This document shows positions 2,057 through 63,500 of a stretch of DNA of 64,000 nt, piece by piece. Both the position numbers and the translations under genes were made by a program. This stretch comes from Cytophagales bacterium (lineage in GTDB: Bacteria; Bacteroidota; Bacteroidia; Cytophagales; UBA9547), in the NCBI GenBank assembly GCA_013297755.1, contig JAAFIH010000017.1, positions 26,264 to 90,263 on the forward strand. The letters are read 5' to 3'. Position 1 is the stretch's first letter. Each line of letters opens with the position of its first letter. The notes beneath the pieces are model-generated. The model made no database searches and was not told the DNA's origin. It saw nothing but the letters and a program-made list of their open reading frames with translations.

Positions 2057-2724
2057 GAAAAATTGATAAAACTCCTTTTTGGGCTACTGCATTTGCTAAT
2101 TACATCAAAGAATATAATAATAAATTTGGACACCATCCAGTTTACGACAGCAGTAAAAACGCTTATTATAATGACATTTACTACAATTTACTATTTTGTC
2201 AAAGAGGTTTATGTGCTTATACTGAAGATTTAATTGACGATACTATTTGGAAAGCAGTACCTCAAAATTGGGAAAAAGGTAAATATATTGGCAAAACACT
2301 AAAATTAGATGCTGATTTAGAACATTTTGACCCAAAACTGAAAGATAAACAAGGTTGGGATTTTGATAATTTATTTTTGGTTAAAATTTATAACAATAGA
2401 AAAATAAAATTAGGAAAAGATGTTCATCTTTTTTTCAAACCTGACTTACCAAATTATAATCCTAAAAAATACATGGAATACAATTTTCTTACTCATCAAT
2501 TTGTTCCTTTAAATGATTTGAGCGAAGATTTGTACACTAAAGTTGATTATATGATAGATACTTTGGGAATTAATGCTCATTCTGTAATTAGCAATCGAAG
2601 ACAATATTTGTTAGAAATTAAAATCACTTTGAAAAATGAGTTTGTAGCATTTGAAATATATCAAAATGAGCGATTGTATAAATTTTTTACAGCTTTTGAA
2701 ATGTCTAAATTTGATTTGATTTGA
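2053..2724 (+). CDS. HNH-like nuclease-family protein, PtuB / TIGR02646-like, degenerate zinc ligands
   Basis: CAYTE...(about 35 aa)...LEHFDPK...WDFDNLFLV...NNRK resembles the TIGR02646 pattern CxYCE...EHfxPk...W.NL...N..K. It is translationally coupled to the upstream ATPase by a 4-nt overlap. Confidence 0.45.
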   Translation: MRKIDKTPFWATAFANYIKEYNNKFGHHPVYDSSKNAYYNDIYYNLLFCQRGLCAYTEDLIDDTIWKAVPQNWEKGKYIGKTLKLDADLEHFDPKLKDKQGWDFDNLFLVKIYNNRKIKLGKDVHLFFKPDLPNYNPKKYMEYNFLTHQFVPLNDLSEDLYTKVDYMIDTLGINAHSVISNRRQYLLEIKITLKNEFVAFEIYQNERLYKFFTAFEMSKFDLI

Positions 2725-2825
2725 TTCAATCGTAAAAAAATAAAGTCTTTTAATTACAATTGACTAAAAAAATTTAATACAAGGATGTTAAAAGAATAAA
2801 TAATTTTATCTAAATTTATAAAAAA

Positions 2826-30799: not shown

Positions 30800-30865
30800 T
30801 TAATTGTTAATTGTTAATTGTTAATTGTTAATGGTTAATTGTTAATTGTTAATGGTTAATTGTTA
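30800..30865. repeat. heptanucleotide tandem array (TTAATTG)x9
   Basis: Read directly: nine consecutive TTAATTG/TTAATGG units starting 11 nt after the stop codon. Confidence 0.9.
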
Positions 30866-30871
30866 AAAAAA

Positions 30872-30897: not shown

Positions 30898-30943
30898 ATC
30901 AATAATATGCTAGATTCATAATTTATAACTCATAATTTATAAC

Positions 30944-31430
30944 TACTATCTACCAACTACCAACTCCAAACTACCAACTACCAACTCCAAACTACTAACT
31001 ACCAACTACCAACTACCAACTATCAACTATCAACTATCAACTACTAACTACCAACTCCCAACTACTAACTCCAAACTCCCAACCACCAACTCCCAACCAC
31101 CAACTCCCAACTACCAACTACCAACTACCAACTACCAACTACCAACTACCAACTACCAACTACCAACTACCAACTACCAACTACCAACCACAAACCACTA
31201 ACTACCAACTACTAACTCCCAACTACCAACTACAAACTACCAACTCCCAACTCCCAACTACCAACTCCAAACTACCAACTACAAACTACCAACTCCCAAC
31301 TACAAACTACCAACTCCTAACTCCTAACTCCCAACTACCAACTACAAACTACCAACTACCAACCACAAACTACTAACTACCAACTCCCAACTCCCAACTC
31401 CCAACTACCAACCACCAACTATTTTCAAGA
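30944..31430. repeat. heptanucleotide tandem array, about 70 units, consensus CT(A/C)CCAA
   Basis: Uninterrupted 7-nt periodicity (CTACCAA, CTCCCAA, CTCCAAA, CTATCAA, CTACTAA, CCACCAA) over about 490 nt, in a single orientation. It is preceded by 2 x TCATAATTTATAAC. Confidence 0.9.
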
Positions 31431-36767: not shown

Positions 36768-39386
36768 TTATTCCGCCACTGGAGATTCTGGCCCAGAAGT
36801 ATTATCATCCATTTCTAGAGAATCATTATCAGTTGCTAGACCATCTTCTGCAAGTGATTCGTCTTCAACACCTTCCATTTTTTCAATTTTTGCAATAGAA
36901 GATATCTCATCAGTATCGCTCAATTTTATTAATCTAACCCCTTGACTAACTCTGCCAATTACTCTCAAATTGGCCACAGACATACGAATAGTAATACCAG
37001 ATTTATTGATTATCATCAAATCATCGTTGTCGTTTACATCCATTAAAGCAACCAGTTTGCCTGTTTTTTCGGTTACATTGAGTGTTTTTACGCCTTTTCC
37101 ACCACGATTGGTTACTCTATAAATATCTTCTCCATCTTCTGGATCTACAAGATTTGTACGTTTGCCATAGCCTTTTTCTGATACCACAAGTAGGGTTGCA
37201 GATTTGGGGTCTGGTAAAGTTACCAAACCTACTACTTTGTCGTCTGGCATGTCTTCATCTAAGGTTACACCATTAACGCCAATCGAATTTCGGCCTACAG
37301 CCCTTACTTTGCTTTCATGGAAACGAATAGCTCTACCAGAACGCAATGCCAATATAACTTCGCAGTTGCCATTTGTAAGTTTTACATCCAATAATCTATC
37401 GCCCTCTTGTATATTAATGGCATTTATACCATTTTGTCGTGGTCTGGAGTATTCCTCTAACAATGTTTTTTTGATAGTACCTTGTTCGGTAGCCATTATC
37501 AAGTAATTGTTGTTGATAAAATCTTCATCTTTAAGATTATTGATATTTATTACTGCTCTTACGTTGTCATCGGCCTCAATATTTATCAAATTTTGGATAG
37601 CACGCCCTTTGGTAGCTTTGGCTCCTTCTGGTATTTCGTAGACTTTCATCCAAAATAGGCGACCTTTGTCAGTAAAAATAAATAAATAGCTGTGAGTGTT
37701 GGCCACAAATAGATGTTCTGTAAAATCAGATTCTTTAGATTTGGCACCTCTTGAGCCTGTTCCTCCCCTATTTTGGGTTTTAAATTCTATTAATTGAGTT
37801 CGTTTTATATAACCTTCGTGAGATATTGTAATGACTACTTGCTCGTCTTCTATCAAATCTTCAACAGAAATATCATCTGCAGCATATACAATACTTGTTC
37901 TTCGGGCATCTCCAAAACGCTCTTTAATTTGTATCAATTCTGCTTTTACAATATCCATTCTGCGACTTTCTTTATCCAAAATATCAATCAAATCTGCTAT
38001 TATAGCCATTAATTCATGGTATTCTTTTTCGATTTTTTCTATTTCAAGACCAGTCAATCTACGTAATTGCAAATCCAAAATAGCTCTTGATTGTATATCC
38101 GAAAGTTCAAATCGCTCCATCAAATTGACTCTTGCTACTTCAGGCTCTCTGGCATCTTTTATGATTTTTATTACTTCATCTATAGCATTTTCTCCTTTAT
38201 CGTTTTTGCCAAGAATTTTCATATAACCTTCCAAAAGATGGGCTCTTTTTTGGGCTTCTGCTAATTCAAATTTTGTTCTACGAGTAATAATTTCGTGTCT
38301 ATGTTCTACAAAATACTTTATCAATTCTTTGAGTGATAAAGTCATAGGGCGACCATGTACTAAACCTACGTTATTGACTGAAAATGAGGTTTGTAGCTGC
38401 GTGTACTTAAACAAATTGTTTAATACCACATTTGGTATAGTATCTCTTCTCAAATCAATCACAACACGATAGCCCTCTTTGTCAGATTCGTCTCTTACGC
38501 CTGTAATACCATCTATTATTTTTTCATTGACAAGTTCAGCAATTTTCTTAATCAGTTCTGCTTTATTTACTTGATAAGGAATACTTGTGATAATGATTTG
38601 ATCTTTGCCATTGGTGTTTTCAATTCTGGCATCAGATCGCATAACAATACGTCCACGACCAGTTTCATACATATTACGCATACCGCTATATCCATATATT
38701 TGAGCACCAGTGGGGAAATCTGGTGCTTTGATATATTTCATCAATTCAGTAGTATCTATTTCTCTATTATCAATATAGGCCAAAGTTCCATCAATAACTT
38801 CAGTAAGATTATGAGGTGCCATATTTGTTGCCATTCCCACAGCTATACCAGATGCTCCATTGACAAGCAAATTAGGAAAGCCACCTGGCAAAACGGTAGG
38901 CTCTTCTAACGAATCGTCAAAGTTGGGTTGCCAATTTACGGTATCTTTATTCAAATCTTTGAGCAGCTCTTCGGCTATTCTTGTCAATCGAATTTCGGTA
39001 TAACGCATGGCAGCAGGTGGGTCTCCATCTACAGAGCCAAAATTACCCTGACCATCTATCAATGGATATCTCAAACTCCAATGTTGAGCCATACGCACAA
39101 TGGCATCGTACACAGAACTATCGCCATGAGGGTGGTACTTACCCAAAACCTCACCCACCAAACGAGCAGATTTTTTGTAGGGTTTATTAAAATTTAAGCC
39201 CAATTCATCAGCAGCATACAAAATTCTGCGATGCACTGGCTTGAGACCATCTCTCACATCAGGCAAAGCACGAGATACTATCACAGACATAGAATAATCT
39301 ATATATGCTGTACGCATTTCGTCTTCTATACTGATTGGAATTATATTTTCGGTTGGTAAATCTAAATTATCAGGAATTTCTGCCAC
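36768..39386 (-). CDS. gyrA: DNA gyrase subunit A
   Basis: [12 protein letters not shown], the [16 protein letters not shown] region, the catalytic AAMRYTE tyrosine, C-terminal beta-pinwheel repeats and an acidic tail. Confidence 0.95.
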
Positions 39387-46706: not shown

Positions 46707-47129
46707 TTAGATAAAACTGCAATTATAAAAAATTTTAAACGGACATTCTTTTGCAAGTTCGTCATAACCTTTGTCGTTGTGTACTAAAGTTATGTTAGAA
46801 TTTATGGCATAAGTAGCAATTAGGCAATCATTGGGTTTACGAATTGTAATTCCTTTTTTACGAAGATGAAAATACATTTGAGCAGCGAGAACAGACATTT
46901 CGTAAGGATTAGCTTCAATCCTTTTTATATCGTCAATTATACTTTTTAAATGAGTGAATTTTCTAGCATCTGATACCCCTTGTAATATTTCTTGAACAAT
47001 TGGTGGACAAATAAAATTATTGTAAGAAGAAAAAATCTTATCTTTTAATAGTTCCGTTCTTACTTCATTCACTCCTTTGATATAATTAATCCAGATACTT
47101 ATATCAAACATTACTTTCCCATTTGTCAT
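46707..47129 (-). CDS. vapC: type II toxin VapC (PIN domain)
   Basis: MFDISIWINYIKG (first acidic residue), IVQEILQG, and NDCLIATYAI...LVHNDKGY. The start is possibly the internal ATG at 47111, which overlaps the vapB stop. Confidence 0.75.
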   Translation of the reverse strand: MTNGKVMFDISIWINYIKGVNEVRTELLKDKIFSSYNNFICPPIVQEILQGVSDARKFTHLKSIIDDIKRIEANPYEMSVLAAQMYFHLRKKGITIRKPNDCLIATYAINSNITLVHNDKGYDELAKECPFKIFYNCSFI

Positions 47130-47362: not shown

Positions 47363-47409
47363 AATTCATAATTCATAATTCATAATTCATAATTCATAAT
47401 TCATAATTT
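47363..47409. repeat. heptanucleotide tandem array (AATTCAT)x6-7
   Basis: Read directly. It occupies the gap between the SDR stop (47410) and the vapB start. Confidence 0.85.
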
Positions 47410-48189
47410 CTATAGTGCCCTATCCAAATGCGTATAGCCGCCATCTACATATAGAATTTGCCCAGTTGTGTGTGCCGAAACTTCTGAGGCAAGAAATAAA
47501 ACTGTGTTTGCGATTTCTTCTGCAGTTGTAAAGCGATTTTCAAGTGGAATTTTTGATGTTATTTTCTTTAATTTTTCTTCTGGATTGGCAAAAGTTTTTA
47601 TCCATCTATCGTAAAGAGGTGTATAAACCTCAGCAGGAATAACCGAGTTTACTCTAATTCCAAATGGCAAAAGTTCTACTGCCCATTCTCTTGTTAAAGC
47701 ATTTTGAGCTCCTTTGCTAGCAGCATAACCAGATGTGCCACCCTGCCCAGTTACCGCAGTTTTAGACCCAATATTAATGATATTTCCTTTGGTTTTCTTC
47801 AAATAAGGCAGTGCAAAATGAGCCAAATTATAGTAATGAAACAGGTTTTTGTGCATGGATTCGATAAACTTTTCTGGCGAACCATGTTCTAATCCAACGC
47901 CATCGTTTACACCAGCATTATTAATCAAAACATCGATTTGTCCATAAATAGAAATGGTTTTTTCAATCGCATTTTTACAATCCAAAACATCAGAAAGTTC
48001 TGTTTTAATAAATTGAAATTCAGCTTTGAGATTTTTTAGCTTTTGCTCAATTTCTATTCCAGCAATATCCGAGCGACCCAAAATCACTACTTTTGCACCT
48101 TCAGAAACAGCCCCAAGCGTTATTGCCTCGCCAATACCAGCTCCTCCGCCTGTAACGATGATAACTTTGTTTTTTAATTTTAAATCCAT
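47410..48189 (-). CDS. SDR family oxidoreductase; candidate L-fucose dehydrogenase by context
   Basis: TGGGAGIGEA Rossmann motif, NNAG, and the YxxxK context YAASKGA. Confidence 0.75.
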   Translation of the reverse strand: MDLKLKNKVIIVTGGGAGIGEAITLGAVSEGAKVVILGRSDIAGIEIEQKLKNLKAEFQFIKTELSDVLDCKNAIEKTISIYGQIDVLINNAGVNDGVGLEHGSPEKFIESMHKNLFHYYNLAHFALPYLKKTKGNIINIGSKTAVTGQGGTSGYAASKGAQNALTREWAVELLPFGIRVNSVIPAEVYTPLYDRWIKTFANPEEKLKKITSKIPLENRFTTAEEIANTVLFLASEVSAHTTGQILYVDGGYTHLDRAL

Positions 48190-48196
48190 TTTTTTA

Positions 48197-48284
48197 ATGT
48201 GTTATGTGTAATGTGTAATGCGTAATGTGTAATGTGTAATGTGTAATGCGTAATGGTAATGCGTAATGTTTAATAGGTAATGCT
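48197..48284. repeat. heptanucleotide tandem array (GTGTAAT/GCGTAAT), about 12 units
   Basis: Read directly. It lies immediately upstream of the SDR start; the sense strand reads ATTACAC repeats. Confidence 0.85.
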
Positions 48285-48320: not shown

Positions 48321-49892
48321 CTAGATATTATAAAATTTTATTGCATTTTTTGCCATGATTTTTTCTTGTTCGTTGATACTTAAATCAGAAATATAGTTTG
48401 ATACAATTCCTAAAACTTGTTGATAATCAGCGGCTAGTAAACACACAGGCCAATCGGAGCCATAAATCAATCTATCAGTTCCAAACGTGTTGAAAACGGT
48501 ATCTAATACTTGTCTAAAATCAGATTCTTTCCAACTTTGCCAATGGGCTTCGGTTACCATGCCTGAAACTTTGCAAAATACATTGGGCAAATGTTTAAAT
48601 GCCTGCATATCATTTTTCCATTCACTAAAATCTTGGTTACGAATATCAGGTTTAGCCAAATGGTCAATCACAAATTTTTGATTTGGAAATTCTTGAACCA
48701 GTTCCAATGCCTCTTCCAATTGATGTGGTTTTAGTAATAAATCGTAAGTATAATTTTGGTTTTTAAGCTTTGAAATAAAATATCTAAACTTATCATCAGA
48801 CATAAATCCGTTTGGCTTTGCTTGGATGATATGTCGGAAACCTTTTAATAGTTCGTAGTTGGGAGTTTGTAGTTGGGAGTTCGTAGTTGGGAGTTCGTGG
48901 TTGGGAGTTCGTAGTTGGGAGTTCGTAGTTGGGAGTTCGTGGTTGGGAGTTCGTAGTTGGGAGTTCGTAGTTGGGAGTTGGGAGTTCGTAGTTAGGAGTT
49001 CGGAGTTAGGAGTTGGGAGTTCGTAGTTGGGAGTTCGTAGTTGGGAGTTAGGAGTTAGGAGTTGGGAGTTCGTAGTTAGGAGTTGGGAGTTCGTGGTTCG
49101 TGGTTCGGAGTTATTTTTCTCCGAACTAAAACCTTTCTCCGAACTACGAACTACGAACTCCGAACTATTACCTTTCTCCGAACTACGAACTCTGAACTCC
49201 GAACTATTTCCTTTCTCCGAACTACGAACTCCGAACTCCGAACTATTTCCTTTCTCCGAACTAAAACCTAAATCTGCCCAGCCCACAACACCTTTTATAA
49301 AATCATGTTTTGAAGCCAAATCTAATAAAAACTCTGTTTCTTGCCATGTTTCGGCAGCTTGAACGGCAATAATTCCGTAGTTTGTAGTTGGGAGTTCGTA
49401 GATGGGAGTTCGTAGTTCGTAGTTGGGAGTTCGTAGTTCGTAGTTGGGAGTTCGTGGTTCGTAGTTGGGAGTTCGTGGTTGGGAGTTTTTTTTCTCCGAA
49501 CTCCGAACTCCGAACTCCGAACTATTTTTTTTCTCCGAACTACGAACTAAGTTCTCCAAACTATTACCTTTCTCCGAACTACGAACTACAAACTCCGAAC
49601 TAAAACCTTTCTCCGAACTCCGAACTCCGAACTCCGAACTATTATTTTTCTCCAAACTATTACCTTTCCCCGAACTACGAACTACGAACTCCGAACTATT
49701 ACCTTTCCCCGAACTACGAACTACGAACTCCGAACTATTACCTTTCCCCGAACTAAAATCATCAGGAAGAAATGATTTTTTAATCACTTCCATTCCATCA
49801 CCAATCCAATCAAATTCTGGATTATTTGCATCGTAATTCCAAAAATGCACATGAGAATCTATAAAGTTCACGGTTGGTTGTTGGTTGTTCAT
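48321..49892 (-). CDS. amidohydrolase-2 family protein (L-fucono-1,5-lactonase-like) carrying two in-frame repeat insertions
   Basis: Conserved blocks FIDSHVHFW, GIIAVQAAE, GVVGWADL, KGFRHI, FVIDHLAKP and LIYGSDWPV. They are interrupted by about 126 and about 139 codons of low-complexity sequence. Total is 523 aa against my recollection of roughly 280-290 aa for this family. Confidence 0.75.
   Translation of the reverse strand: MNNQQPTVNFIDSHVHFWNYDANNPEFDWIGDGMEVIKKSFLPDDFSSGKGNSSEFVVRSSGKGNSSEFVVRSSGKGNSLEKNNSSEFGVRSSEKGFSSEFVVRSSEKGNSLENLVRSSEKKNSSEFGVRSSEKKNSQPRTPNYEPRTPNYELRTPNYELRTPIYELPTTNYGIIAVQAAETWQETEFLLDLASKHDFIKGVVGWADLGFSSEKGNSSEFGVRSSEKGNSSEFRVRSSEKGNSSEFVVRSSEKGFSSEKNNSEPRTTNSQLLTTNSQLLTPNSQLRTPNYELPTPNSELLTTNSQLPTTNSQLRTPNHELPTTNSQLRTPNHELPTTNSQLQTPNYELLKGFRHIIQAKPNGFMSDDKFRYFISKLKNQNYTYDLLLKPHQLEEALELVQEFPNQKFVIDHLAKPDIRNQDFSEWKNDMQAFKHLPNVFCKVSGMVTEAHWQSWKESDFRQVLDTVFNTFGTDRLIYGSDWPVCLLAADYQQVLGIVSNYISDLSINEQEKIMAKNAIKFYNI
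48847..49262. repeat. inverted-arm heptamer element inside the lactonase CDS (insertion 2)
   Basis: Plus strand: about 263 nt of TTGGGAG/TTCGTAG units, then the apex TTCGGAG-ttattttt-CTCCGAA, then about 145 nt of CTCCGAA/CTACGAA units with CTATTTCCTTT spacers. Confidence 0.85.
49377..49755. repeat. inverted-arm heptamer element inside the lactonase CDS (insertion 1)
   Basis: About 110 nt of TTGGGAG/TTCGTAG units, then the apex GGGAG-T8-CTCC, then about 262 nt of the complementary CTCCGAA/CTACGAA units in 39-nt higher-order repeats. Confidence 0.85.
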
Positions 49893-49898
49893 AGAGAA

Positions 49899-50255
49899 TT
49901 AAGATTTTATTGATTTTTTTAGTCCACTTATCATTTTGATTATTTCTTCTAATTTTTGGTATTGATTATTAAAGTCTACCTCTAAAATTATATTTCTTTT
50001 TTTTCCAAGATGCAAACAACTAACACATTCTATTGCTGACCTCATGGCTATTGAAAGAAATCTAGCAAATTCAGGTTTTGTCTGACCAGTTGAACCTTCT
50101 GCAATATTTAATACAATAGAATCAGCAGCTCGTTGAAATTGGCTTGATAAAACATACTTTTCTTCGGAAGGGAATTTTTTTATCAAAATATTAACTTCTA
50201 AAGAATAATCTAAAGCCTTTTGCCAAACTTGTAAGTTTTCAAAATTAAATGCCAT
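49899..50255 (-). CDS. four-helix-bundle protein (23S rRNA intervening-sequence protein family, TIGR02436-like)
   Basis: FENLQVWQKALDY...FPSEEKYVLSSQFQRAADSIVLNIAEGS...EFARFLSIAMRSAIE, 118 aa. Confidence 0.8.
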   Translation of the reverse strand: MAFNFENLQVWQKALDYSLEVNILIKKFPSEEKYVLSSQFQRAADSIVLNIAEGSTGQTKPEFARFLSIAMRSAIECVSCLHLGKKRNIILEVDFNNQYQKLEEIIKMISGLKKSIKS

Positions 50256-50256
50256 G

Positions 50257-50437
50257 GTTTTTGGTTTTTAGTTTTTAGTTGGGAGTTCGTAGAATTTAGT
50301 TGGGAGTTCGTAGAATTTAGTTCGTAGTTCGTAGAATTTAGTTTGTAGTTCGTAGAATTTAGTTCGTAGTTCGTAGTTGGGAGTTGGTTGTTCATAGAAT
50401 TGAGTTTTTAGTTGGTGGATTTTAGTTTTGGAGTTTA
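50257..50437. repeat. heptamer array, G-rich orientation (left arm of a large intergenic inverted repeat)
   Basis: 21-nt higher-order unit AGTTGGGAGTTCGTAGAATTT x4 plus TTTTTAG/TTGGGAG units. It is the reverse complement of the array at 50663-50874. Confidence 0.85.
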
Positions 50438-50662: not shown

Positions 50663-50874
50663 TAATTACAACAAACTACAAACAACGAACAATCGATTCC
50701 CAACTCCCAACCACTAACTCCCAACTATGAACTAAATTCTACGAACTACCAACTACGAACTACGAACTAAATTCTACGAACTCCTAACTACAAACAACGA
50801 ACTAAATTCTACGAACTCCCAACTCCTAACAACGAACTCCCAACTCCCAACTACGAACTCCCAACTACCAACTG
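50663..50874. repeat. heptamer array, C-rich orientation (right arm)
   Basis: It contains AACTAAATTCTACGAAC x3, the exact complement of the left-arm unit, plus CTCCCAA/CTACGAA units. It runs into the last codons of the FAH-family gene. Confidence 0.85.
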
Positions 50875-51807
50875 TCTTTGCTCTCCCAACCCATCTATTC
50901 CCAACTCTACTATATCACCTGCTTTTAGGTATTGTGGTGGATTGAATCCTAATCCTACTCCTGCTGGAGTTCCAGTAGAAATTACATCTCCAGGCAATAA
51001 AGTCATAAATTGACTGATGTAGCTTACCACAAATGGCACATTGAAAATAAAATCATTGGTATTGCTATCTTGCTTCATTTCTCCATTTACTTTGAGCCAA
51101 AGTCTAAGATTGTGCACATCTTTTACTTCATCTTTGGTGGCTAAAAATGGACCAAGAGGAGCAAAAGTATCGCAGCCCTTTCCTTTATCCCACTGTCCGC
51201 CACGCTCAAGCTGAAAAGCTCTTTCACTATAATCATTATGCACACAATAGCCGGCAACATAGTTTAATGCCTCATTTTCAGACACATAAGTGGCTTTTTT
51301 GCCAATTACAATAGCAAGTTCTACTTCCCAATCGGTTTTTTCAGAGGTTTTTGGAATTATAATATTTCCGTTGGGGTCGTTCAAGGCAGTGGTAGATTTA
51401 AAGAACAAAATAGGCTCTTTAGGAATAGGCGAATTGGTTTCGTGGGCATGAAGTCTATAATTCAATCCTACACAAACTATTTTAGATGGACGAGCTACGC
51501 AAGAAGCCAGTTTGGGAGTTGGGGCTTGGGAGTTCGTAGTTGGGAGTTCGTAGTTCGTAGTTGGGAGTTGGTAGTTCGTAGTTGGGAGTTGGGAGTTCGT
51601 AGTTGGGGCTTGGGAGTTCGTAGTTGGGAGTTCGTAGTTCGTAGTTGGGAGTTTGTCCAATTCTAAGGTTTTTAGTTTTTCAAGCCCACCATATGCAAAG
51701 AAATCTTCATTAAAATCTGAAAAGATGCTGCTTACATCATAGATTTTATCATTGGCTAATAAGCCTGGTTTTACTTGATTGTTTTGGTAAAATCGTACTA
51801 GTTTCAT
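50851..51807 (-). CDS. fumarylacetoacetate hydrolase (FAH) family protein; candidate 2,4-diketo-3-deoxy-L-fuconate hydrolase, with an in-frame heptamer insertion
   Basis: PSKIVCVGLNYRLHAHE, WEVELAIVIGK, QWDKGKGCDTFAPLGP and TLLPGDVISTGTPAGVG. A 46-aa LPTTNYE/LPTTNSQ tract lies between the N-terminal lobe and the catalytic domain. Confidence 0.8.
   Translation of the reverse strand: MKLVRFYQNNQVKPGLLANDKIYDVSSIFSDFNEDFFAYGGLEKLKTLELDKLPTTNYELPTTNSQAPTTNSQLPTTNYQLPTTNYELPTTNSQAPTPKLASCVARPSKIVCVGLNYRLHAHETNSPIPKEPILFFKSTTALNDPNGNIIIPKTSEKTDWEVELAIVIGKKATYVSENEALNYVAGYCVHNDYSERAFQLERGGQWDKGKGCDTFAPLGPFLATKDEVKDVHNLRLWLKVNGEMKQDSNTNDFIFNVPFVVSYISQFMTLLPGDVISTGTPAGVGLGFNPPQYLKAGDIVELGIDGLGEQRQLVVGSS
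51514..51651. repeat. heptamer array inside the FAH CDS (single orientation, 138 nt)
   Basis: TTGGGAG/TTCGTAG/TTGGGGC units on the plus strand. The coding strand reads the stop-free CTCCCAA/CTACGAA version as (LPTTN[YS][EQ])n. Confidence 0.85.
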
Positions 51808-51818
51808 AATTTTATATT

Positions 51819-51912
51819 AGCCCCCCAACCCCCGAAGGGGGAGTTTAAATAGATTTAAGCACTGGGGATTAAGTGCTTCCCCGAAGTATTCCCCCTTCGG
51901 GGGGTGGGGGCT
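51819..51912. repeat. GC-rich palindromic element (CCCCCGAAGGGGG family) filling an intergenic gap
   Basis: AGCCCCCCAACCCCCGAAGGGGGA ... TCCCCCTTCGGGGGGTGGGGGCT terminal inverted repeats, with inner hairpin AAGCACT-ggggatt-AAGTGCTT. It ends exactly at the SDR stop codon (51913). Confidence 0.8.
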
Positions 51913-54467: not shown

Positions 54468-54630
54468 GTTTTTTAGTTTTTAGTTGGGAGTTCGTAGTTG
54501 GGAGTTGGGAGTTGGGAGTTCGTAGTTGGGAGTTCGTGGTTGGGAGTTCGTAGTTGGGAGTTCGTAGTTGGGAGTTAGTAGTTAGTAGTTGGGAGTTCGT
54601 GGTTTTTAGTTCGTGGTTTTTAGTTTGAAG
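54468..54630. repeat. heptamer array TTGGGAG/TTCGTAG (G-rich on plus strand)
   Basis: Read directly. It fills the gap between the ABM-domain gene and the mutarotase gene; the sense (minus) strand reads CTCCCAACTACGAA up to the mutarotase ATG. Confidence 0.9.
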
Positions 54631-54651
54631 TTCCATTTCATAAACACTATG

Positions 54652-55155: not shown

Positions 55156-55307
55156 ACAACCTACTCCCAACACCCAACTACGAACACCCAACTACAAACT
55201 ACGAACTACGAACTCCCAACTACAAACTACGAACTCCAAACCACGAACTCCCAACTACAAACCACGAACACCCAACTACAAACTACGAACTACGAACTAC
55301 TAACTCC
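55156..55307. repeat. heptamer array CTCCCAA/CTACGAA/CACCCAA (C-rich on plus strand)
   Basis: Read directly. It abuts the stop codon of the second fucosidase (55308). A short opposite-orientation array (55066-55096) lies about 60 nt away. Confidence 0.9.
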
Positions 55308-56672
55308 CTACTTCAATTCTATCTCAAAAACCGTATTTATTTTATCGGGCATTGGAAAAGTTTGATAACAAGGTCTATCAACATTTATGTAAACATTTTT
55401 GCCTGTATTATCTCCCCACCAAGTGGTTTCGTACCTGATTTCTGAGCCATCTTGTAAAAGATTCACTCGTTTTACTTTATCTGAATAATCTTTTAAAACA
55501 ATTCCTCCAATGGCAGGATACATTCTGTGAGCGAATAGAGATTTCCCATTAGAAGTAAATATTCCCCAATCATAACGAGGCATAGTACTAGCACCACAGC
55601 CAAATATGCTTTTTCCATTTTTTTGCATCCAATTTCCAACTTCTGCTAAAATATCAGTTGATTGTTTCGGGATTCTACCCAAAGCATCTGGACCAACATT
55701 GAGTAATAAATTACCATTTTTGCTCACACAGTTTACAAGTGTATGAATCACCAAAGGAGCTGATTTCCAATTGTTATCATATCTATTATAGCCCCAAGAG
55801 TTGTTTAAGGTTAAACAAGATTCCCAAGGGAGTGGTCTTCCTAGTTTGTCAGTGATGGCTTTTTCTGGAATAGTTTGTTCTGGTGTGTCAAAATCCCCAA
55901 ATGAATTTTCTTCCATGCCTGTGGTGCCGTCTCCACCCAATCTATTATTTAAAATAATGCTTGGTTGGAGTGTACGCACCATTTCTACTAATTCTTTAGC
56001 TTTCCATTTTTCGCCTTTCATTTCATCATAGCTAAAATCAAACCACATGATGTCTATTTTGCCATAGTTGGTACAAAGTTCTTTTACCTGACCGTGCATA
56101 AATTTGATGTAATTGTCCCAATTGATTTTTTCATCTTTATACTTTTCATTTCCACGCATTGGATGATGGGTATCTTTAAATTTGGGGTAATCAGGATGAT
56201 GCCAATCAATTACTGAAAAGTATAAGCCTACTTTTAAACCCTCTGCACGTAAGGCTTCCACGTATTCTTTGATAATATCACGTTTAAAAGGTGTATTGGT
56301 AATTTTATAATCTGTTTGTTTGGTATCCCAAAGAGCAAAACCTTCGTGGTGTTTGGCTGTGAGTACTACATATTTCATGCCTGCTTGTTTGGCAGTGCGA
56401 GCCCATTCTTTGGCATCAAATAAGTAAGGATTAAAGTTTTTAAAATACGCTTCGTCATAGACTTCGTTAGTTATTTTTTCAACACTTTTGACCCATTCGC
56501 CTCTTGAAGGTATGGAATATAAACCAAAATGGACAAACATACCAAAACGTGCATCACGATGCCATTCTGTGCGTTTGATTTTTGATTCATAACTATTGTC
56601 GTTGGCAGCTGGATTTTGTGCAAAACAAAATATTTGAAAAATCAATAATAATGCTGTATATACCTTTTTCAT
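55308..56672 (-). CDS. alpha-L-fucosidase (GH29), secreted
   Basis: WHRDARFGMFVHFGLYSIPS, YVVLTAKHHEGFALW and GNLLLNVGPDALG motifs, with a signal peptide. Confidence 0.85.
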   Translation of the reverse strand: MKKVYTALLLIFQIFCFAQNPAANDNSYESKIKRTEWHRDARFGMFVHFGLYSIPSRGEWVKSVEKITNEVYDEAYFKNFNPYLFDAKEWARTAKQAGMKYVVLTAKHHEGFALWDTKQTDYKITNTPFKRDIIKEYVEALRAEGLKVGLYFSVIDWHHPDYPKFKDTHHPMRGNEKYKDEKINWDNYIKFMHGQVKELCTNYGKIDIMWFDFSYDEMKGEKWKAKELVEMVRTLQPSIILNNRLGGDGTTGMEENSFGDFDTPEQTIPEKAITDKLGRPLPWESCLTLNNSWGYNRYDNNWKSAPLVIHTLVNCVSKNGNLLLNVGPDALGRIPKQSTDILAEVGNWMQKNGKSIFGCGASTMPRYDWGIFTSNGKSLFAHRMYPAIGGIVLKDYSDKVKRVNLLQDGSEIRYETTWWGDNTGKNVYINVDRPCYQTFPMPDKINTVFEIELK

Positions 56673-57940: not shown

Positions 57941-58170
57941 AGAAGTTCCACTTTTTTGAAAAGTGGAACTTCTACATTTACAAAGATACCATCGCTCCAA
58001 ACAAAGGTATCTTTATCATAAAATTTATGCGTAAGCAAAAGCCCCCTTCGGGGTTCTGTGCATCGAACAGAAGTACTTTCAGGGGGCTTTCTATCAAAAG
58101 CCCCTTTCGGGATTCTGTCCATCGAACAGAAGTACTTTCATGGGGCTTTCCCTGAAGTACCACTTTTTAA
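57941..58170. repeat. mosaic of nested hairpin modules (composite repeat, copy 1)
   Basis: Modules in order: AGAAGTTCCAC-ttttttgaaaa-GTGGAACTTCT; AAGATACC...GGTATCTT; two copies of AAAGCCCCCT..TTCTGT-gcatcga-ACAGAA..AGGGGGCTTT; a degenerate GAAGTACCAC hairpin. The same module order recurs at 63262-63500. Confidence 0.8.
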
Positions 58171-58697: not shown

Positions 58698-61600
58698 ATG
58701 AAAAATTCAATATTCAGCCCCCAAACCCCCGAAGGGGGCTTTCTGAGACTACAAACTTCAAACATTGTACTCCAATTCAAAAATCTTGCGCCAGCCTCAA
58801 ATACAAAAAAAGTCCTTTTTAAAGCCCCCTTCGGGGGTTTGGGGGCTGTTCTTTTCACATTCCTCCTCCTTACCCACCTCACCTTTGCTCAACGCACCTT
58901 TGCCCCACAAGTTACCTACGCCACAGGTACTAATCCATACAGCGTAGCGATAGGCGACCTTACTGGCGATGGCAGAGCAGATTTGGCAGTGGCGAATAGT
59001 AATATCAACACCATAAGTGTATATACCAACACAGGCAGCGGCAGCTTTGCCCCACAGGTAACCTACAACACAGGTTCTAATCCATACAGCGTATTTATAG
59101 GCGACCTTACAGGCGATGGCAAAGCCGATTTGGCAGTAGCGAATTATATTAGCAATACCGTAAGTGTATATACCAACACAGGCAGCGGCAGCTTTGCCCC
59201 ACAAGTAACCTACGCCACAGGTTCTCGTCCTTGTAGCGTAGCGATAGTTGACCTTACAGGCGATGGCAAAGCCGATTTGGCAGTAGCGAATCGTAGTAGC
59301 AATACCGTAAGTGTATATACCAACACAGGCAGCGGCACCTTTGCCCCCCAAGTTACCTACGCCACAGGTACTAGTCCATACAGCGTAGCCATAGGCGACC
59401 TTACAGGCGATGGCAGACCCGATTTGGTAGTAGCGAATAGTAATAGCAATACCGTAAGTGTATATACCAACACAGGCAGCGGCAGCTTTGCAGCCCAAGT
59501 AACCTACGCCACAGGGTCTGGTCCATTCAGCGTAGCGATAGGCGACCTTACAGGCGATGGCAAAGCCGATTTGGCAGTAGCGAATAATGGTAGCAATACC
59601 GTAAGTGTATATACCAACACTGGCAGCGGCAGCTTTGCAGCCCAAGTAACCTACGCCACAGGTCTTGGTCCAATCAGCGTAGCTATAGGCGACCTTACAG
59701 GCGATGGCAGAGCCGATTTAGCAGTAGCGAATCAGAGTAGCAATACCGTAAGTGTACTCACCAACACAGGCAGCGGCACCTTTGCCCCCCAAGTTACCTA
59801 CGCCACAGGTACTACTCCATGGAGCGTAGCCATAGGCGACCTTACAGGCGATGGCAAAGCAGATTTGGCAGTAGCGAATTATAATAGCAATACCGTAAGT
59901 GTACTCATCGCACAAGAGGTGCAGTTTATCAATGGGTTTTTAGTTTCAAATAAGGTATATGGCAGTACTTTTGCTTTTAATGCAACAGCTACAAGTGGCT
60001 TGCCGGTGAGCTACAGCAGTTCAAATCCTAGTATTTTAAGTCTTGTGGGCAATGCTGCTACAGCTACAGGTGTAGGAGTAGTTACAGTTACAGCTTTTCA
60101 AAATGGCAATGCTACTTTTGCAGGAGTTACACTTACGGGTGTGCTTACCATTACCAAAGCCAACCTTACTGTTCAAGGCAATAATAATACTAGGGTATAT
60201 GGAACTGCTAACCCTGCTTTTACAAGTTCGGTTACAGGTTTGGTATTGGGCAGCACAGTAAATGTAACCTACAGCACCACAGCCACACCTAGTAGCAATG
60301 TGGGCAATTATCCTATAAACATAAGTGTTACAGGCATAGCCTTGGCAAATTATAACCTCACTACTTTGGCAGGGGTTTTAACCATAACAGCAAAACCTGC
60401 CACCGTTTCGGGCAATAATTTTAGTAGAGAATATAGTGCTTCTAACCCCATATTTACAGGCAGTGTTTTAGGTTTGGTAAATAATGATGCAATTACATAT
60501 AGTGGTTCTACATCCGCAACAAGCCTTTCGGGAATTGGCGTTTATGCAATAATTGCAACCGCTGTTGGTACAAACATTCTCAATTATCAATTCTCCATTC
60601 TCAATTCAAACCTCTCCATTACCGCAAAATCAGCCACCGTTTCGGGCAATAATTTTAATAGAGTTTATGGTTCAACCAATCCTATATTTACAGGTACCGT
60701 TTTAGGTTTGGTAAATGGCGATGTACTTAATTATAGTGGTTCTACTACAGCCACAAGTCTTTCTGGAGTTGGCGTTTATGCAATTCTTGCAACTTTTGTG
60801 GGAAATAATGTGTCAAATAATTATAAACTCTCCATTCTCAATTCTCAATTAACTATTACTGCTTTGGCTTTTGTGAGTACAGCACCTAGCCCTATTGTTT
60901 TTAATAGTACAGTTTATGATGGTCAGCCAAAAGTGCCTTCTGTGGTTGGTTTGCCTAGCACTTCGGGAGTAAACTATACCTACAATGGCAGTAGCACAGC
61001 TCCCACCAATGCAGGAAGTTATACAGTTGTGGGTATAATCACAGACCCAAATTACACAGGTACAGTTACAAGTGTAATCATAATATCTCCATCAGATATT
61101 AGCAATCAACTTTCGGTAGCTGGGCTTAGCAATAGTATGTATAATGGTTCGCCCAAAACTACAAGCATTACAGGTTTGCCTTTAGGAGTTGCCAGTAGCG
61201 TTACCTACAATGGTAGCCCAACTGCACCTACAAACGCAGGTACATATACAGTTATAGGAATTGTAAATGATAATAATTATATAGGTACAGTTACAAGTGT
61301 TATCGTAATTTCTCCATCAGACATTAGCAACCAACTTTCGGTAGCTGGGCTTAGCAATAGTGTATATAATGGTTCGCCCAAAACTACAAGCATTACAGGT
61401 TTGCCTTCAGGAGTTGCCAGTAGCGTTACCTACAATGGTAGCCCAACTGCACCTACAAACGCAGGTACATATACAGTTATAGGAATTGTAAATGATAATA
61501 ATTATATAGGTACAGTTACAAGTGTTATCCTAATTTCTCCATCAGACATTAGCAACCAACTTTCGGTAGCTGGGCTTAGCAATAGTATGTATAATGGTTC

Positions 61601-62747
61601 GCCAAAAGCTACAAGTATTACAGGTTTGCCTTCAGGAGTTGCCAGTAGCGTTACCTACAATGGTAGCCCAACTGCACCTACAAACGCAGGTACTTACACA
61701 GTTATAGGAATTGTAAATGATAATAATTATATAGGTACAGTTACAAGTGTTATCCTAATTTCTCCATCAGACATTAGCAACCAACTTTCGGTAGCTGGGC
61801 TTAGCAATAGTGTATATAATGGTTCGCCAAAAGCTACAAGCATTACAGGTTTGCCTTCAGGAGTTGCCAGTAGCGTTACCTACAATGGTAGCCCAACTGC
61901 ACCTACAAACGCAGGTACATATACAGTTATAGGAATTGTAAATGATAATAATTATGTAGGCACAACCACAAGCACAATGGTAATTTTACCAGTTTCGGCA
62001 ACCATAGTTGGCAACAATGTAAACAGAGTATATGGCTTAGCTAATCCCATATTTACAGGTACAATATTAGGTTTGGTAAATAGCGATGTTATAAATTATG
62101 AAGGTTCTACATCAGCCACAAGCCTTTCGGGAATTGGGGTTTATGCAATCATAGCCACAGCCACAGGAACAAACGTGGGTAATTATCAATTCTCCATTTT
62201 CAATGCTCAATTAACAGTAACACCAGCAAATGCAACAGCAAGTGTATCTGGCATAGTGTCGGATGGAAATATTGTTAACGCCACTGTGCCAACAAGTATT
62301 ACCATTTCGGGTTCAGGTTTCGAGCCAGGAGCAAGTGTTACTGTCAATGGAGTGGTTTTGTCAAACTTAATAGTAATTAACGGCTCAACAATTATAGCTA
62401 CTTTGCCAGCTGGCTCAGCCACAAGTAGCAATGTGAGTGCAATAGTTCAAAACCCAAACCAAAATCCAAGTGCCTCAACTGCTATAGTTGTAGTAAACGC
62501 CAATCCAACTTCTACTAGCCTACCAGTCTACCAATCTACCAACCTTACAGTTTTCCCCAATCCAAGTAAAGGTAGTTTTACAATTTCGGCATCTATGCCA
62601 CTAGGCAAAATAATGATTTACACCCTCGATGGAAAATTGGTGCAAACCAAAACTACCAATGAAAACAAACTATTTGTTTCGGGTATTTCAACAGGAACAT
62701 ATATTGTATATGTGGATAAATCGAGTGTAAAAGTAGTGGTTGAATAG
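58698..62747 (+). CDS. FG-GAP/VCBS beta-propeller + MBG + Ig-like repeat protein with a T9SS type A sorting domain
   Basis: Seven 49-aa FAPQVTYATG..P.SVAIGDLTGDGKADLAVAN..SNTVSVYTNTGSGS repeats. MBG-like (R)VYG..NPIFTG..LGLVNGD modules. Four near-identical 75-aa Ig-like modules. C-terminus LTVFPNPSKGSFTI...GTYIVYVDKSSVKVVVE. Confidence 0.8.
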   Translation: MKNSIFSPQTPEGGFLRLQTSNIVLQFKNLAPASNTKKVLFKAPFGGLGAVLFTFLLLTHLTFAQRTFAPQVTYATGTNPYSVAIGDLTGDGRADLAVANSNINTISVYTNTGSGSFAPQVTYNTGSNPYSVFIGDLTGDGKADLAVANYISNTVSVYTNTGSGSFAPQVTYATGSRPCSVAIVDLTGDGKADLAVANRSSNTVSVYTNTGSGTFAPQVTYATGTSPYSVAIGDLTGDGRPDLVVANSNSNTVSVYTNTGSGSFAAQVTYATGSGPFSVAIGDLTGDGKADLAVANNGSNTVSVYTNTGSGSFAAQVTYATGLGPISVAIGDLTGDGRADLAVANQSSNTVSVLTNTGSGTFAPQVTYATGTTPWSVAIGDLTGDGKADLAVANYNSNTVSVLIAQEVQFINGFLVSNKVYGSTFAFNATATSGLPVSYSSSNPSILSLVGNAATATGVGVVTVTAFQNGNATFAGVTLTGVLTITKANLTVQGNNNTRVYGTANPAFTSSVTGLVLGSTVNVTYSTTATPSSNVGNYPINISVTGIALANYNLTTLAGVLTITAKPATVSGNNFSREYSASNPIFTGSVLGLVNNDAITYSGSTSATSLSGIGVYAIIATAVGTNILNYQFSILNSNLSITAKSATVSGNNFNRVYGSTNPIFTGTVLGLVNGDVLNYSGSTTATSLSGVGVYAILATFVGNNVSNNYKLSILNSQLTITALAFVSTAPSPIVFNSTVYDGQPKVPSVVGLPSTSGVNYTYNGSSTAPTNAGSYTVVGIITDPNYTGTVTSVIIISPSDISNQLSVAGLSNSMYNGSPKTTSITGLPLGVASSVTYNGSPTAPTNAGTYTVIGIVNDNNYIGTVTSVIVISPSDISNQLSVAGLSNSVYNGSPKTTSITGLPSGVASSVTYNGSPTAPTNAGTYTVIGIVNDNNYIGTVTSVILISPSDISNQLSVAGLSNSMYNGSPKATSITGLPSGVASSVTYNGSPTAPTNAGTYTVIGIVNDNNYIGTVTSVILISPSDISNQLSVAGLSNSVYNGSPKATSITGLPSGVASSVTYNGSPTAPTNAGTYTVIGIVNDNNYVGTTTSTMVILPVSATIVGNNVNRVYGLANPIFTGTILGLVNSDVINYEGSTSATSLSGIGVYAIIATATGTNVGNYQFSIFNAQLTVTPANATASVSGIVSDGNIVNATVPTSITISGSGFEPGASVTVNGVVLSNLIVINGSTIIATLPAGSATSSNVSAIVQNPNQNPSASTAIVVVNANPTSTSLPVYQSTNLTVFPNPSKGSFTISASMPLGKIMIYTLDGKLVQTKTTNENKLFVSGISTGTYIVYVDKSSVKVVVE
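58716..58847. repeat. GC-rich palindromic element (CCCCCGAAGGGGG family) inserted in-frame in the signal-peptide coding region
   Basis: AGCCCCCAAACCCCCGAAGGGGGCTTT ... AAAGCCCCCTTCGGGGGTTTGGGGGCT, 27-bp perfect terminal inverted repeats. It is exactly 132 nt, which is 44 codons. Confidence 0.8.
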
Positions 62748-62760
62748 GTAACAAAGGATG

Positions 62761-63248
62761 CGAACGCAGACAGGGTTTTGAACCCTGTCTGCGTTTGATT
62801 TTTTAAAGATTCTGTCGCTTGGAGCGATGATTTCTTTTTTTAAACTACAAACCTATAAGGTTTTAAAAACCTTATAGGTTTGCGAACGCAGACAGGGTTT
62901 TGAACCCTGTCTGCGTTTGATTTTTTAAAGATTCTATCGCTTGGAGCGATGATTTCTTTTTTTTAACTACAAACCTATAAGGTTTTAAAAACCTTATAGG
63001 TTTGCGAACGCAGACAGGGTTTTGAACCCTGTCTGCGTTTGATTTTTTAAAGATTCTATCGCTTGGAGCGATGATTTCTTTTTTTTAACTACAAACCTAT
63101 AAGGTTTTAAAAACCTTATAGGTTTGCGAACGCAGACAGGGTTTTGAACCCTGTCTGCGTTTGATTTTTTAAAGATTCTATCGCTTGGAGCGATGATTTC
63201 TTTTTTTTAACTACAAACCTATAAGGTTTTAAAAACCTTATAGGTTTA
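62761..63248. repeat. 4 x 122-bp near-identical tandem repeat, each unit built of three hairpins
   Basis: Units start at 62761, 62883, 63005 and 63127. Hairpins are AACGCAGACAGGGT-loop-ACCCTGTCTGCGTT (+TGATTTTTT), ATCGCT-tgg-AGCGAT, and the perfect palindrome AAACCTATAAGGTTTT/AAAACCTTATAGGTTT. Confidence 0.9.
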
Positions 63249-63261
63249 TTTACCGATTTTT

Positions 63262-63500
63262 TAAAAAGTGAAACTTCTACGTTTACAAATATACCATCGC
63301 TCCAAACAAAGGTATCTTTATCATAAAATTCATGAGTTAGCAAAAGCCCCCTTCGGGGGTTTGGGGGCTTACTATCAAAAGCCCTCTTCGGGGTTCTGTG
63401 CATCGAACAGAAGTACTTTCAGGGGTTCTGTGCATCGAACAGAAGTACTTTCAGGGGGCTTTCCCTGAAGTTCCACTTTTTTGAAAAGTGGAACTTCTAC
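63262..63500. repeat. mosaic of nested hairpin modules (composite repeat, copy 2)
   Basis: Same module order as 57941-58170, in direct orientation, ending with GAAGTTCCAC-ttttttgaaaa-GTGGAACTTC. Confidence 0.8.

Follow-up and report, generated by a model that had tools for sequence, protein, structure and literature searches.

The locus described here raises the question of how a long tract of seven-nucleotide repeats came to lie, in frame, within the gene for a conserved catabolic enzyme. The locus is part of a 64,000-nucleotide stretch from a Cytophagales bacterium (assembly GCA_013297755.1, contig JAAFIH010000017.1, positions 26,264 to 90,263), the whole of which is referred to below as the window, and the gene in question encodes a hydrolase of the FAH family. 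In our reading, to which we assign a probability of roughly 0.7, the tract grew out of an ancestral heptanucleotide array in a linker that tolerates insertion; the expansion would be essentially neutral apart from filtering by selection, and its product a disordered spacer.

The heptamer tract in the FAH-family hydrolase

The gene and its parts, with the evidence for each, are as follows:

50851-51807, minus strand: intact gene for the FAH-family hydrolase, 318 amino acids (Pfam, PDB match, Foldseek, alignment)
51652-51807, minus strand: segment encoding residues 1-52, the small N-terminal domain; the array follows it (PDB match, alignment, AlphaFold2)
51514-51653, minus strand: heptamer array of 20 units, residues 53-98 (sequence, Tandem Repeats Finder (TRF), autocorrelation)
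50851-51513, minus strand: end of the linker and catalytic FAA_hydrolase domain, residues 99-318 (Pfam, PDB match, alignment)

The minus strand of 51514-51653 consists of 20 phased units of the AACTNCN type (AACTCCC, AACTACG, AAGCCCC and AACTACC). Counted on the coding strand, positions 51514-51651 hold CTCCCAA and CTACGAA eight times each, GCCCCAA twice, CTACCAA once and a partial unit, to which 51653 adds two bases. The first half of the tract reads AA-CTCCCAA CTACGAA CTACGAA CTCCCAA CTACGAA CTCCCAA GCCCCAA CTACGAA CTCCCAA CTCCCAA, and the second half CTACGAA CTACCAA CTCCCAA CTACGAA CTACGAA CTCCCAA CTACGAA CTCCCAA GCCCCAA CTCCC. The 46 codons (residues 53-98) specify the peptide LPTTNYE LPTTNSQ APTTNSQ LPTTNYQ LPTTNYE LPTTNSQ APTP, bounded by ...LKTLELDK on the N-terminal side and by KLASCVARPSKIVCVGLNY on the C-terminal side; in conceptual translation, LPTTNYELPTTNSQ peptides are of the type that the tract encodes. 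TRF independently reported a repeat at 51517-51653 with a period of 21, 6.5 copies and 89% matches, and together with the autocorrelation of the tract it identifies a head-to-tail prokaryotic heptanucleotide tandem repeat, of the kind known as long simple sequence repeats (LSSR) or short tandemly repeated repetitive (STRR) sequences. A four-unit, 28-nt pattern of the AACTNCN family occurs four times in the window and in none of 100 shuffles. The heptamer tract is thus real, beyond chance, as the first-pass annotation of this DNA had proposed from the letters alone, and unit phasing, TRF and translation agree that it is in frame over 46 codons. The size needs one qualification: the array spans 46 codons, of which only about 35 are extra relative to the orthologues, and the other 11 or so occupy the position of a linker of normal length. 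The coding strand is free of stop codons in all three frames (0/0/0), in line with that annotation, yet one frame of the opposite strand (0/3/6) is open as well.

The 318-amino acid protein is probably a 2,4-diketo-3-deoxy-L-fuconate/rhamnonate hydrolase of the FAH family, to judge from its sequence relationships. Pfam PF01557 is covered over model positions 1-213 of 214 (E=1.4e-70), and the best relative of solved structure is the L-2,4-diketo-3-deoxyrhamnonate hydrolase 8gsr (E=3e-73), on which the AlphaFold2 model superposes across both domains according to Foldseek (template modelling score, TM, 0.85). All 86 columns that are invariant among 18 aligned orthologues are kept in the window protein, including E161, E163, D192 and K208, which we take to be metal-binding residues. 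The genomic context is that of fucose utilisation, with an Amidohydro_2 lactonase, two short-chain dehydrogenases, two alpha-L-fucosidases, a rhaM-type mutarotase and a GD_AH-type dehydratase as neighbours. Full-length domain, fold, conserved residues and pathway context thus agree on the family, and from family and pathway we infer that the hydrolase is an intracellular catabolic enzyme and not a surface protein.

The position of the tract in the fold was examined in the AlphaFold2 model, for which the 18-sequence orthologue alignment served as input. Residues 1-60, which include the N-terminal domain, were modelled with a predicted local distance difference test score (pLDDT) of 87-93, and in the tract the score falls below 50 at residues 63-95, with no secondary structure over residues 58-99. 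The catalytic domain is uneven, with values of about 60-66 over residues 100-160 and mostly 83-92 beyond, apart from low loops at 196-217 and 281-286. In the model, the tract maps to a predicted disordered loop that joins the small N-terminal and the catalytic domain; Pfam, the PDB match and the model all place it where the N-terminal lobe meets the PF01557 domain, as the first-pass annotation had done. The product of the tract is therefore predicted to be a disordered interdomain spacer rich in Pro, Thr, Asn, Ser and Gln, at a site that is expected to tolerate added length.

Short arrays at the same junction in orthologous genes

The orthologues are typically 279-285 amino acids long, versus 318 in the window, and in the alignment some 35 additional residues separate its N-terminal domain from the conserved ...CVARPSK segment. 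The first-pass annotation had described the array as interrupting the gene, a view that on its own terms would fall if homologues had a similar linker of their own in this place. Such a linker is what the close orthologues (70-86% identity) possess: KLPTTDYEPST in P0003, SQLPTLDSQLPTLD in P0005, KLPTINYEPRTIN in P0007, LPTLNYEPST in P0008 and LSTINYQSST in P0009 occupy the same site with a kindred peptide of the form K-LPT(T/L/I)NYEP..., and the idea of an interruption by foreign sequence is not supported.

The linker DNA could be read for four of these five orthologues. It consists of short phased heptamer arrays, in part decayed, that share the 5' junction AAA CTN CCA ACT. Among the loci compared at the DNA level, the linker of L205 reads AACTACC AACTATC AACTACG AACCACG AACTATA, that of L002 AACTACC AACTACC GACTACG AGCCATC AACTCTC, and that of L203 ACTCCC AACTCTC GACTCCC AACTCCC AACACTC. 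The linkers of L207 and L400 are decayed heptamer arrays; L400 is the FAH locus of a Cytophagales metagenome-assembled genome (MAG) that shares 93% GyrA identity with the window. Copy number therefore differs among related genomes, from about 4-6 units in L002, L203, L205 and L207 to 20 in the window. Since the orthologues carry short arrays at the same junction, the tract is best seen as the in-place expansion of an ancestral array and not as foreign DNA. From these comparisons, the array would have arisen once, in the ancestor of a small clade, where it replaced the normal linker, after which it decayed, was replaced or, in the lineage of the window, expanded.

The more distant orthologues (46-62% identity) have linkers of normal length and no large insert. 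No period-7 signal was found in the 33 linkers that could be extracted from 80 orthologues of GTDB representative genomes (about 47-62% identity), and these linkers have an ordinary sequence (...P.V....RLGS). None of 160 orthologue matches in genomes and metagenomes exceeds about 870 nt. In the metagenome scan the best full-length match was 62% identical (two partial matches reached 67-71%), with the insert in none. An exact 28-mer of the array gave no match in the GTDB representative genomes, a set without the genome of the window. A second allele of this species was found in none of the protein, genome and metagenome collections searched, and the 90% cluster of the protein has a single member.

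How the tract grew

The growth in the lineage of the window amounts to about 15 units, equal to 105 nt or 35 amino acids (from about 5 to 20 copies). Units 1-7 recur exactly as units 13-19, which reveals an in-frame duplication of 84 nt (28 codons) with an exact repeat of 53 nt at that offset; it is the most recent event that is visible in the sequence. Autocorrelation within the tract is 0.88, 0.86, 0.88 and 0.96 at lags of 21, 42, 63 and 84 nt, and 0.76 at 7 nt. The longest exact repeats at in-frame offsets measure 53 nt (offset 84), 22 nt (offset 21) and 20 nt (offset 63); at out-of-frame offsets they reach 18 nt at 35 and at 49, 16 nt at 14 and 11 nt at 7. Four unit types alternate in the tract as a mosaic in which at most two identical units follow each other in tandem.

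The frame is kept in all intragenic arrays, that is, in the three of the window and in the short ones of five relatives. It appears that translation shapes these arrays, because in the lactonase described below the orientation with TAG on the sense strand is restricted to a 39-nt unit in which the TAGs fall out of frame.

We propose that a short heptamer array would already have been present in the FAH interdomain linker of the ancestor of a Cytophagales-like clade, and that a later, lineage-specific and in-frame expansion would have produced the tract. The (AACTNCN)n family, which is genome-wide, accumulates where genes begin and end and, when oriented so as to be free of stops, also in parts of proteins that can accommodate insertions. 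Growth most likely proceeded by replication slippage or by unequal recombination among the units of the array, and selection would act as a filter only, keeping the length a multiple of three and free of stop codons. The product would be a Pro/Thr/Asn-rich disordered spacer, probably translated and presumably of small effect on the enzyme. The proposal builds on what is observed directly, namely the anatomy of the tract, the orthologous short arrays, their common junction, the disorder in the model and the distribution of the family as a whole.

The repeat family in the window and in other genomes

The AACTNCN family is represented in the window by at least ten arrays, mostly intergenic and at gene boundaries, which are dense at 48.8-55.3 kb, in the fucose cluster. 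Arrays inside genes are confined to the hydrolase (one) and the lactonase (two). Arrays outside the two genes, or at their ends, include:

50698-50876, no strand assigned: reversed array (sense strand TTGGGAG/TTCGTAG) that encodes the final LVVGSS and the TAG stop codon (50851-50853) of the FAH gene (unit search)
50256-50427, minus strand: array, C-rich on the sense strand, adjoining the ATG of the downstream 23S_rRNA_IVP-family gene (TRF, unit search)
54472-54632, minus strand: intergenic array between the mutarotase and ABM-domain genes (TRF, unit search, shuffles)
55163-55308, plus strand: intergenic array adjoining the 3' end of a fucosidase gene (TRF, unit search)
30955-31423 (also delimited as 30941-31421), plus strand: longest array, almost pure, about 67 units, mostly AACTACC, 469-481 nt, between the Por_Secre_tail and HGLS-family genes (TRF, unit search)

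The two arrays inside the lactonase gene are:

49371-49757, minus strand: lactonase insert 1, about residues 46-174, about 129 amino acids (translation, TRF, unit search)
48849-49268, minus strand: lactonase insert 2, about residues 209-348, about 140 amino acids, with the architecture of insert 1 (translation, TRF, unit search)

The Amidohydro_2 lactonase open reading frame (ORF) at 48321-49892 (minus strand) encodes 523 amino acids, versus 278-295 in its orthologues. Each insert starts with 39-nt (13-codon) units in reversed orientation (SSEFVVRSSEKGN...), followed by forward heptamers that encode PRTPNYE, LPTTNSQ and similar peptides, so that the first-pass annotation was right to recognise kindred heptamer-encoded peptides in this enzyme. 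The 39-nt unit is made up of four heptamers and an 11-nt spacer, a periodicity that holds the TAGs out of frame. As reversed units precede forward ones, each insert has two complementary halves that could fold back on each other as very long hairpins. The first-pass annotation had also linked the arrays to two enzymes of one pathway; both enzymes do carry them, but the arrays are not specific to the pathway, since they also occupy the intergenic spacers of the 6.5-kb stretch and the 469-nt array lies 17 kb away. Short heptamer arrays are present in both lactonase loops of L207, L203, L001 and L205. Site 2 of the L207 lactonase is a miniature inverted version (GTTCGTAGT...ACTACGAAC), and other heptamer units occur in these loops, AACATTC in L205 and CATTCTA in L001.

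The units follow the genome in which they reside. Of the 7-mers in the hydrolase linker, 63% in the window and 56% in L203 recur in other arrays of the same genome, as against 0-32% in other genomes (0-28% for L203). The L203 genome has GACTCCC/GACTCTC in the hydrolase linker, past its stop codon and in the lactonase loop. Units that are genome-specific and common to the arrays of one genome are a signature of the concerted evolution of a satellite-like family.

Outside the clade, a degenerate search for (AACTNCN)5 followed by AACT in the GTDB representative genomes gave at least 120 loci. Among the matches listed, most are from Nostocales with AACTCCT/AACTCCC units, seen in genomes of Nostoc, Rivularia, Calothrix and Cyanomargarita, and several are from Bacteroidota, e.g. 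mosaics of AACTACT, AACTACC and AACTACG in a Bacteroidales MAG and in Parabacteroides. A search with the 46-residue peptide gave 16 weak matches, all to ORFs of 45-77 amino acids that are mostly annotated as hypothetical, from cyanobacteria, Leucothrix, Bacteroidales and Flavobacteriaceae, with two annotated as Salmonella. The query protein itself was not recovered, and the peptide search therefore says little on other enzymes.

Several observations concern the 3' end of the FAH gene and the gene downstream of it. Reversed arrays at or just past the FAH stop codon are also present in L002, L207 and L203, and the 3' end of the L400 gene has a decayed equivalent (LVVASL; TTAGTAG TTGCAAG TTTATAG). 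The 23S_rRNA_IVP gene, encoding a four-helix bundle, is found at 49899-50255 (minus strand) in the window, at 10988-11341 in L203, at 1540-1896 in L207 and at 3650-3976 in L002, flanked by heptamer arrays. In the window, L203 and L207 this gene has the FAH gene on one side and the lactonase gene on the other; in L002, for which no lactonase was called, it follows closely on the FAH gene, and L001, L205 and L400 do not have it. The possibility that the arrays travel with this gene was rejected: the gene is an orthologous resident of four genomes, and IVP genes were no more frequent at heptamer-array loci (1 of 120) than at control loci (1 of 80).

Comparison with known heptanucleotide repeats

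The G-rich heptamers of Xanthomonas and Nostoc correspond to the STRR heptamers of cyanobacteria. Rehm et al. 2015 (PMC4692102) described them as GGGAATC in Xanthomonas and GGGGA(C/T)T in Nostoc, with many arrays per genome and variable copy number. These arrays cluster within about 50 bp of ORF ends, with the G-rich strand sense at stop codons and antisense before starts; within ORFs it is the C-rich strand that is sense, the G-rich one being avoided there, and tandemly inverted arrays occur (PMC4692102). The family described here is similar in having 7-nt units with a G3 tract (GGGAGTT), many arrays and the same rules of position and strand. Indeed, the stop codon of the FAH gene, the region before the IVP start and the FAH tract all follow the rule; the lactonase departs from it in part, with its reversed 39-nt units. 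In contrast to the Xanthomonas and Nostoc arrays, the present ones are mosaic and reside in a low-GC (32%) Cytophagales-like host.

A second heptamer, TAACTGA, forms direct repeats in Beggiatoaceae, Cyanobacteria and some Bacteroidetes (MacGregor 2015, PMC4679880). These arrays lie directly upstream of start codons and overlap stops, and within ORFs they are found only in the stop-free orientation and only where tolerated, at the 'periphery' of the protein (PMC4679880). The positions at start and stop codons, the stop-free orientation inside ORFs, the tolerated sites and the presence in Bacteroidetes are shared by the arrays described here, which differ in the unit, in having all three frames open, in occupying an internal interdomain linker instead of a terminus and in being traceable as orthologous arrays. 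According to the summary in PMC4679880 of the prokaryotic LSSR study by Mrazek et al. 2007, heptanucleotides are the commonest class, slippage was proposed for their expansion, and LSSRs in coding regions mostly have units divisible by three. As far as that summary goes, our tract agrees in its heptanucleotide unit and in slippage as the proposed mechanism, and differs in that the 7-nt unit is accommodated in a coding region by way of a 21-nt superperiod.

The finding is otherwise essentially a known kind of bacterial simple-repeat behaviour, with no new mechanism. It is modestly new in that the intragenic arrays of orthologues can be followed across a clade and are homogenised genome by genome, reaching 46-140 residues in two conserved enzymes.

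Alternative explanations

Contingency loci built on simple sequence repeats, e.g. the tetranucleotide tracts of Haemophilus, have a tandem repeat inside an ORF with a unit that is not divisible by three. The tract at codons 53-98 shares this property, and the first-pass annotation had suggested a contingency-like behaviour, with hypervariable lengths. In such a reading, slipped-strand mispairing in steps of 7 nt would switch the hydrolase (and the lactonase) on and off and render fucose catabolism phase-variable. The exact repeats of 16-18 nt at the out-of-frame offsets of 14, 35 and 49 nt would permit such events, arrays are present in two genes of the pathway, and in the stop-free orientation a frameshift would not end translation inside the array. 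On the other hand, the tract is heterogeneous, a mosaic of four unit types where a contingency locus would have a homogeneous tract, and the longest homologies (53, 22 and 20 nt at offsets 84, 21 and 63) favour in-frame changes. It resides in a housekeeping gene with no known on/off variants, the product of which is a sugar-acid catabolic enzyme, presumably intracellular, without surface or restriction-modification function. Arrays of the same family also fill non-coding spacers throughout the locus, the orthologous arrays are short, decayed and always in frame, and no out-of-frame allele was found, in collections that hold no second allele of this species. We hold contingency behaviour of the tract to be unsupported and improbable. 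Similarly doubtful is a structural element, in which the linker array would pair with its inverted counterpart at the stop codon as a long-range RNA duplex that encloses the catalytic-domain coding region and affects stability or translation of the mRNA, or in which the two would serve as substrate for recombinational inversion of that segment. Complementarity between the intragenic tract and the array at 50698-50876 amounts to 77% over 135 nt, an unconstrained minimum-free-energy fold pairs the two (-332 kcal/mol versus -251 +/- 8.6 for shuffled sequences, z = -9.4), and L203, L002 and L207 likewise combine a linker array with a complementary stop-codon array, each built of genome-specific units. 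Two arrays of a single family that face opposite ways are, however, complementary by construction, and the co-variation of units is accounted for by the genome-wide sharing of unit variants. The pairing is lacking in L001, L205 and L400, and the inverted arrangement was seen in no relative examined. Moreover, translating ribosomes are expected to break up such a duplex. No Rfam family was matched, the only hits being sub-threshold, hairpin-like chance matches in the lactonase inserts. A role as G-quadruplex-forming repeat was rejected as well: the canonical motif (at least four G3 tracts, loops of 1-7 nt) is absent from the window because half of the units (CTACGAA) are without a G-tract; only with the loop limit raised to 12 nt do motifs appear, two of them in the tract. 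We give the same low credence to a broader scheme, in which, in this clade, satellite-like heptamers evolve in concert across the genome and rewrite linkers and loops at fixed orthologous sites, and in which the paired inverted arrays (linker and stop codon; the two arms of each lactonase insert) would be functional: as long-range RNA duplexes or as substrates of recombination, they would govern how the segment encoding the catalytic domain is expressed or oriented in genes of the fucose pathway. If the arrays did switch the frame or pair functionally, control of fucose catabolism would be unusual, either stochastic or structural, but there is no sign here that they do.

Still less probable is an assembly artefact, i.e. 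a wrong copy number or arrangement of the repeats through collapse or expansion in a short-read metagenome assembly. The protein derives from a single NCBI contig of 97.8 kb with no second copy found, its nearest relatives are MAGs, and the lactonase inserts (about 390-420 nt) probably exceed a typical short read. The FAH tract measures only 140 nt, however, with unique sequence on both sides, the three intragenic arrays keep long ORFs (318 and 523 codons) despite stops in the other frames of the reversed segments, and the independent assemblies of relatives have arrays at matching sites. Least probable of all, and very unlikely indeed, is a recent insertion, in frame and into an uninterrupted gene, of a mobile element that resembles a miniature inverted-repeat transposable element or a Rickettsia palindromic element. 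The AACTNCN family is dispersed over many sites and two genes, and in Rickettsia the in-frame insertion of palindromic elements in genes is known; there, each element is a separate palindromic mobile unit whose length is fixed, and its translation adds a surface segment to an otherwise conserved protein. Our tract resembles them in that repeated DNA is translated as an extra segment, but it is a tandem array that grows in place. It is a pure tandem array of a single orientation, without terminal inverted repeats, recognisable target duplication or internal unique sequence. The growth comprises whole units only, 15 of them, and in place of an empty site and defined ends the orthologues already hold a short array at the same junction. 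Being tandem repeat throughout, the tract gives no ground for reading it as an intein or intron either.

Some points weigh against the neutral expansion of an ancestral array that we prefer. The nearest orthologue by identity, L001 (79-86%), has a linker of 22 residues (LPFLENPTNHQSVTSSVR) without heptamer periodicity, from which it follows that the history of the linker includes replacement or decay besides expansion. The 21-nt superperiod also occurs in some intergenic arrays, so that this periodicity alone is no proof of selection for the frame, and as an argument for coding selection it is weakened. The dynamics of slippage and the neutrality of the process are inferred. As the assembly is of the metagenome type, copy numbers, especially in the lactonase, are provisional and are given here as assembled. 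Finally, the strong complementarity between the tract and the stop-codon array, which we treat as incidental, may leave room for a structural role.

Other features of the window

Besides the AACTNCN family, the window contains other heptamer arrays. A different array, TTAATTG (9.6 copies, 30800-30866), precedes the array of about 67 units, and unrelated AT-rich arrays flank the short-chain dehydrogenase gene at 47410-48189, namely AATTCAT (6.6 copies, 47363-47408) and TAATGTG (12.7 copies, 48195-48282). A family of GC-rich hairpin repeats (CCCCCGAAGGGGG / CCCCCTTCGGGGG) is found at 51820-51912, 58036-58150, 58726-58837 and 63347-63457, in sequence of 32% GC. One copy forms an inverted repeat of about 90 nt between a dehydrogenase gene and the FAH start codon; others are tandem duplicates of 59 nt and 32 nt. 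An ORF of 1349 amino acids at 58698-62747 (plus strand) contains tandem repeats of 147 nt (6.9 copies, 58894-59903) and 225 nt (4.1 copies, 61050-61964), and GC around it is about 40-43%, above the rest of the window. Downstream, at 62759-63247, a unit of 122 nt is repeated 4.0 times at 99% identity and has hairpins of its own (CAGACAGGGTTTTGAACCCTGTCTG).

The left end of the window (653-4619) carries genes of a defence type, for an AAA_15/AAA_21 (AbiEii-like) ATPase and a restriction endonuclease of the GmrSD family. A PIN-domain toxin gene (46707-47129) lies inside the fucose cluster, matched in position by a VapB/PIN pair in L205. For the GyrA protein (36768-39386, minus strand), identity is 93% with the Cytophagales MAG PH2015_03D_30_9 and 83% with the Bacteroidetes MAG PH2015_06S_32_163, which assigns the window to an uncultured, Cytophagales-like lineage of low GC; outside gyrA, the window shares no synteny with these MAGs. 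The surroundings of gyrA in the closest GTDB relatives, probed for the presence of the 469-nt array, showed no synteny beyond gyrA itself.

Implications

Tracts such as the one described here lengthen proteins, break short-read assemblies and seed spurious ORF calls, as illustrated by the peptide search, which returned only ORFs of 45-77 amino acids, mostly hypothetical. The hydrolase offers a natural example of a non-triplet repeat inside a conserved enzyme, in which three conditions come together: the orientation is free of stops, the linker is predicted to be disordered, and the steps of growth keep the frame. A stretch of protein, LPTTNYE in one genome and SQLPTLD in another, can thus follow the repeat family of its genome and not selection at the level of the protein.

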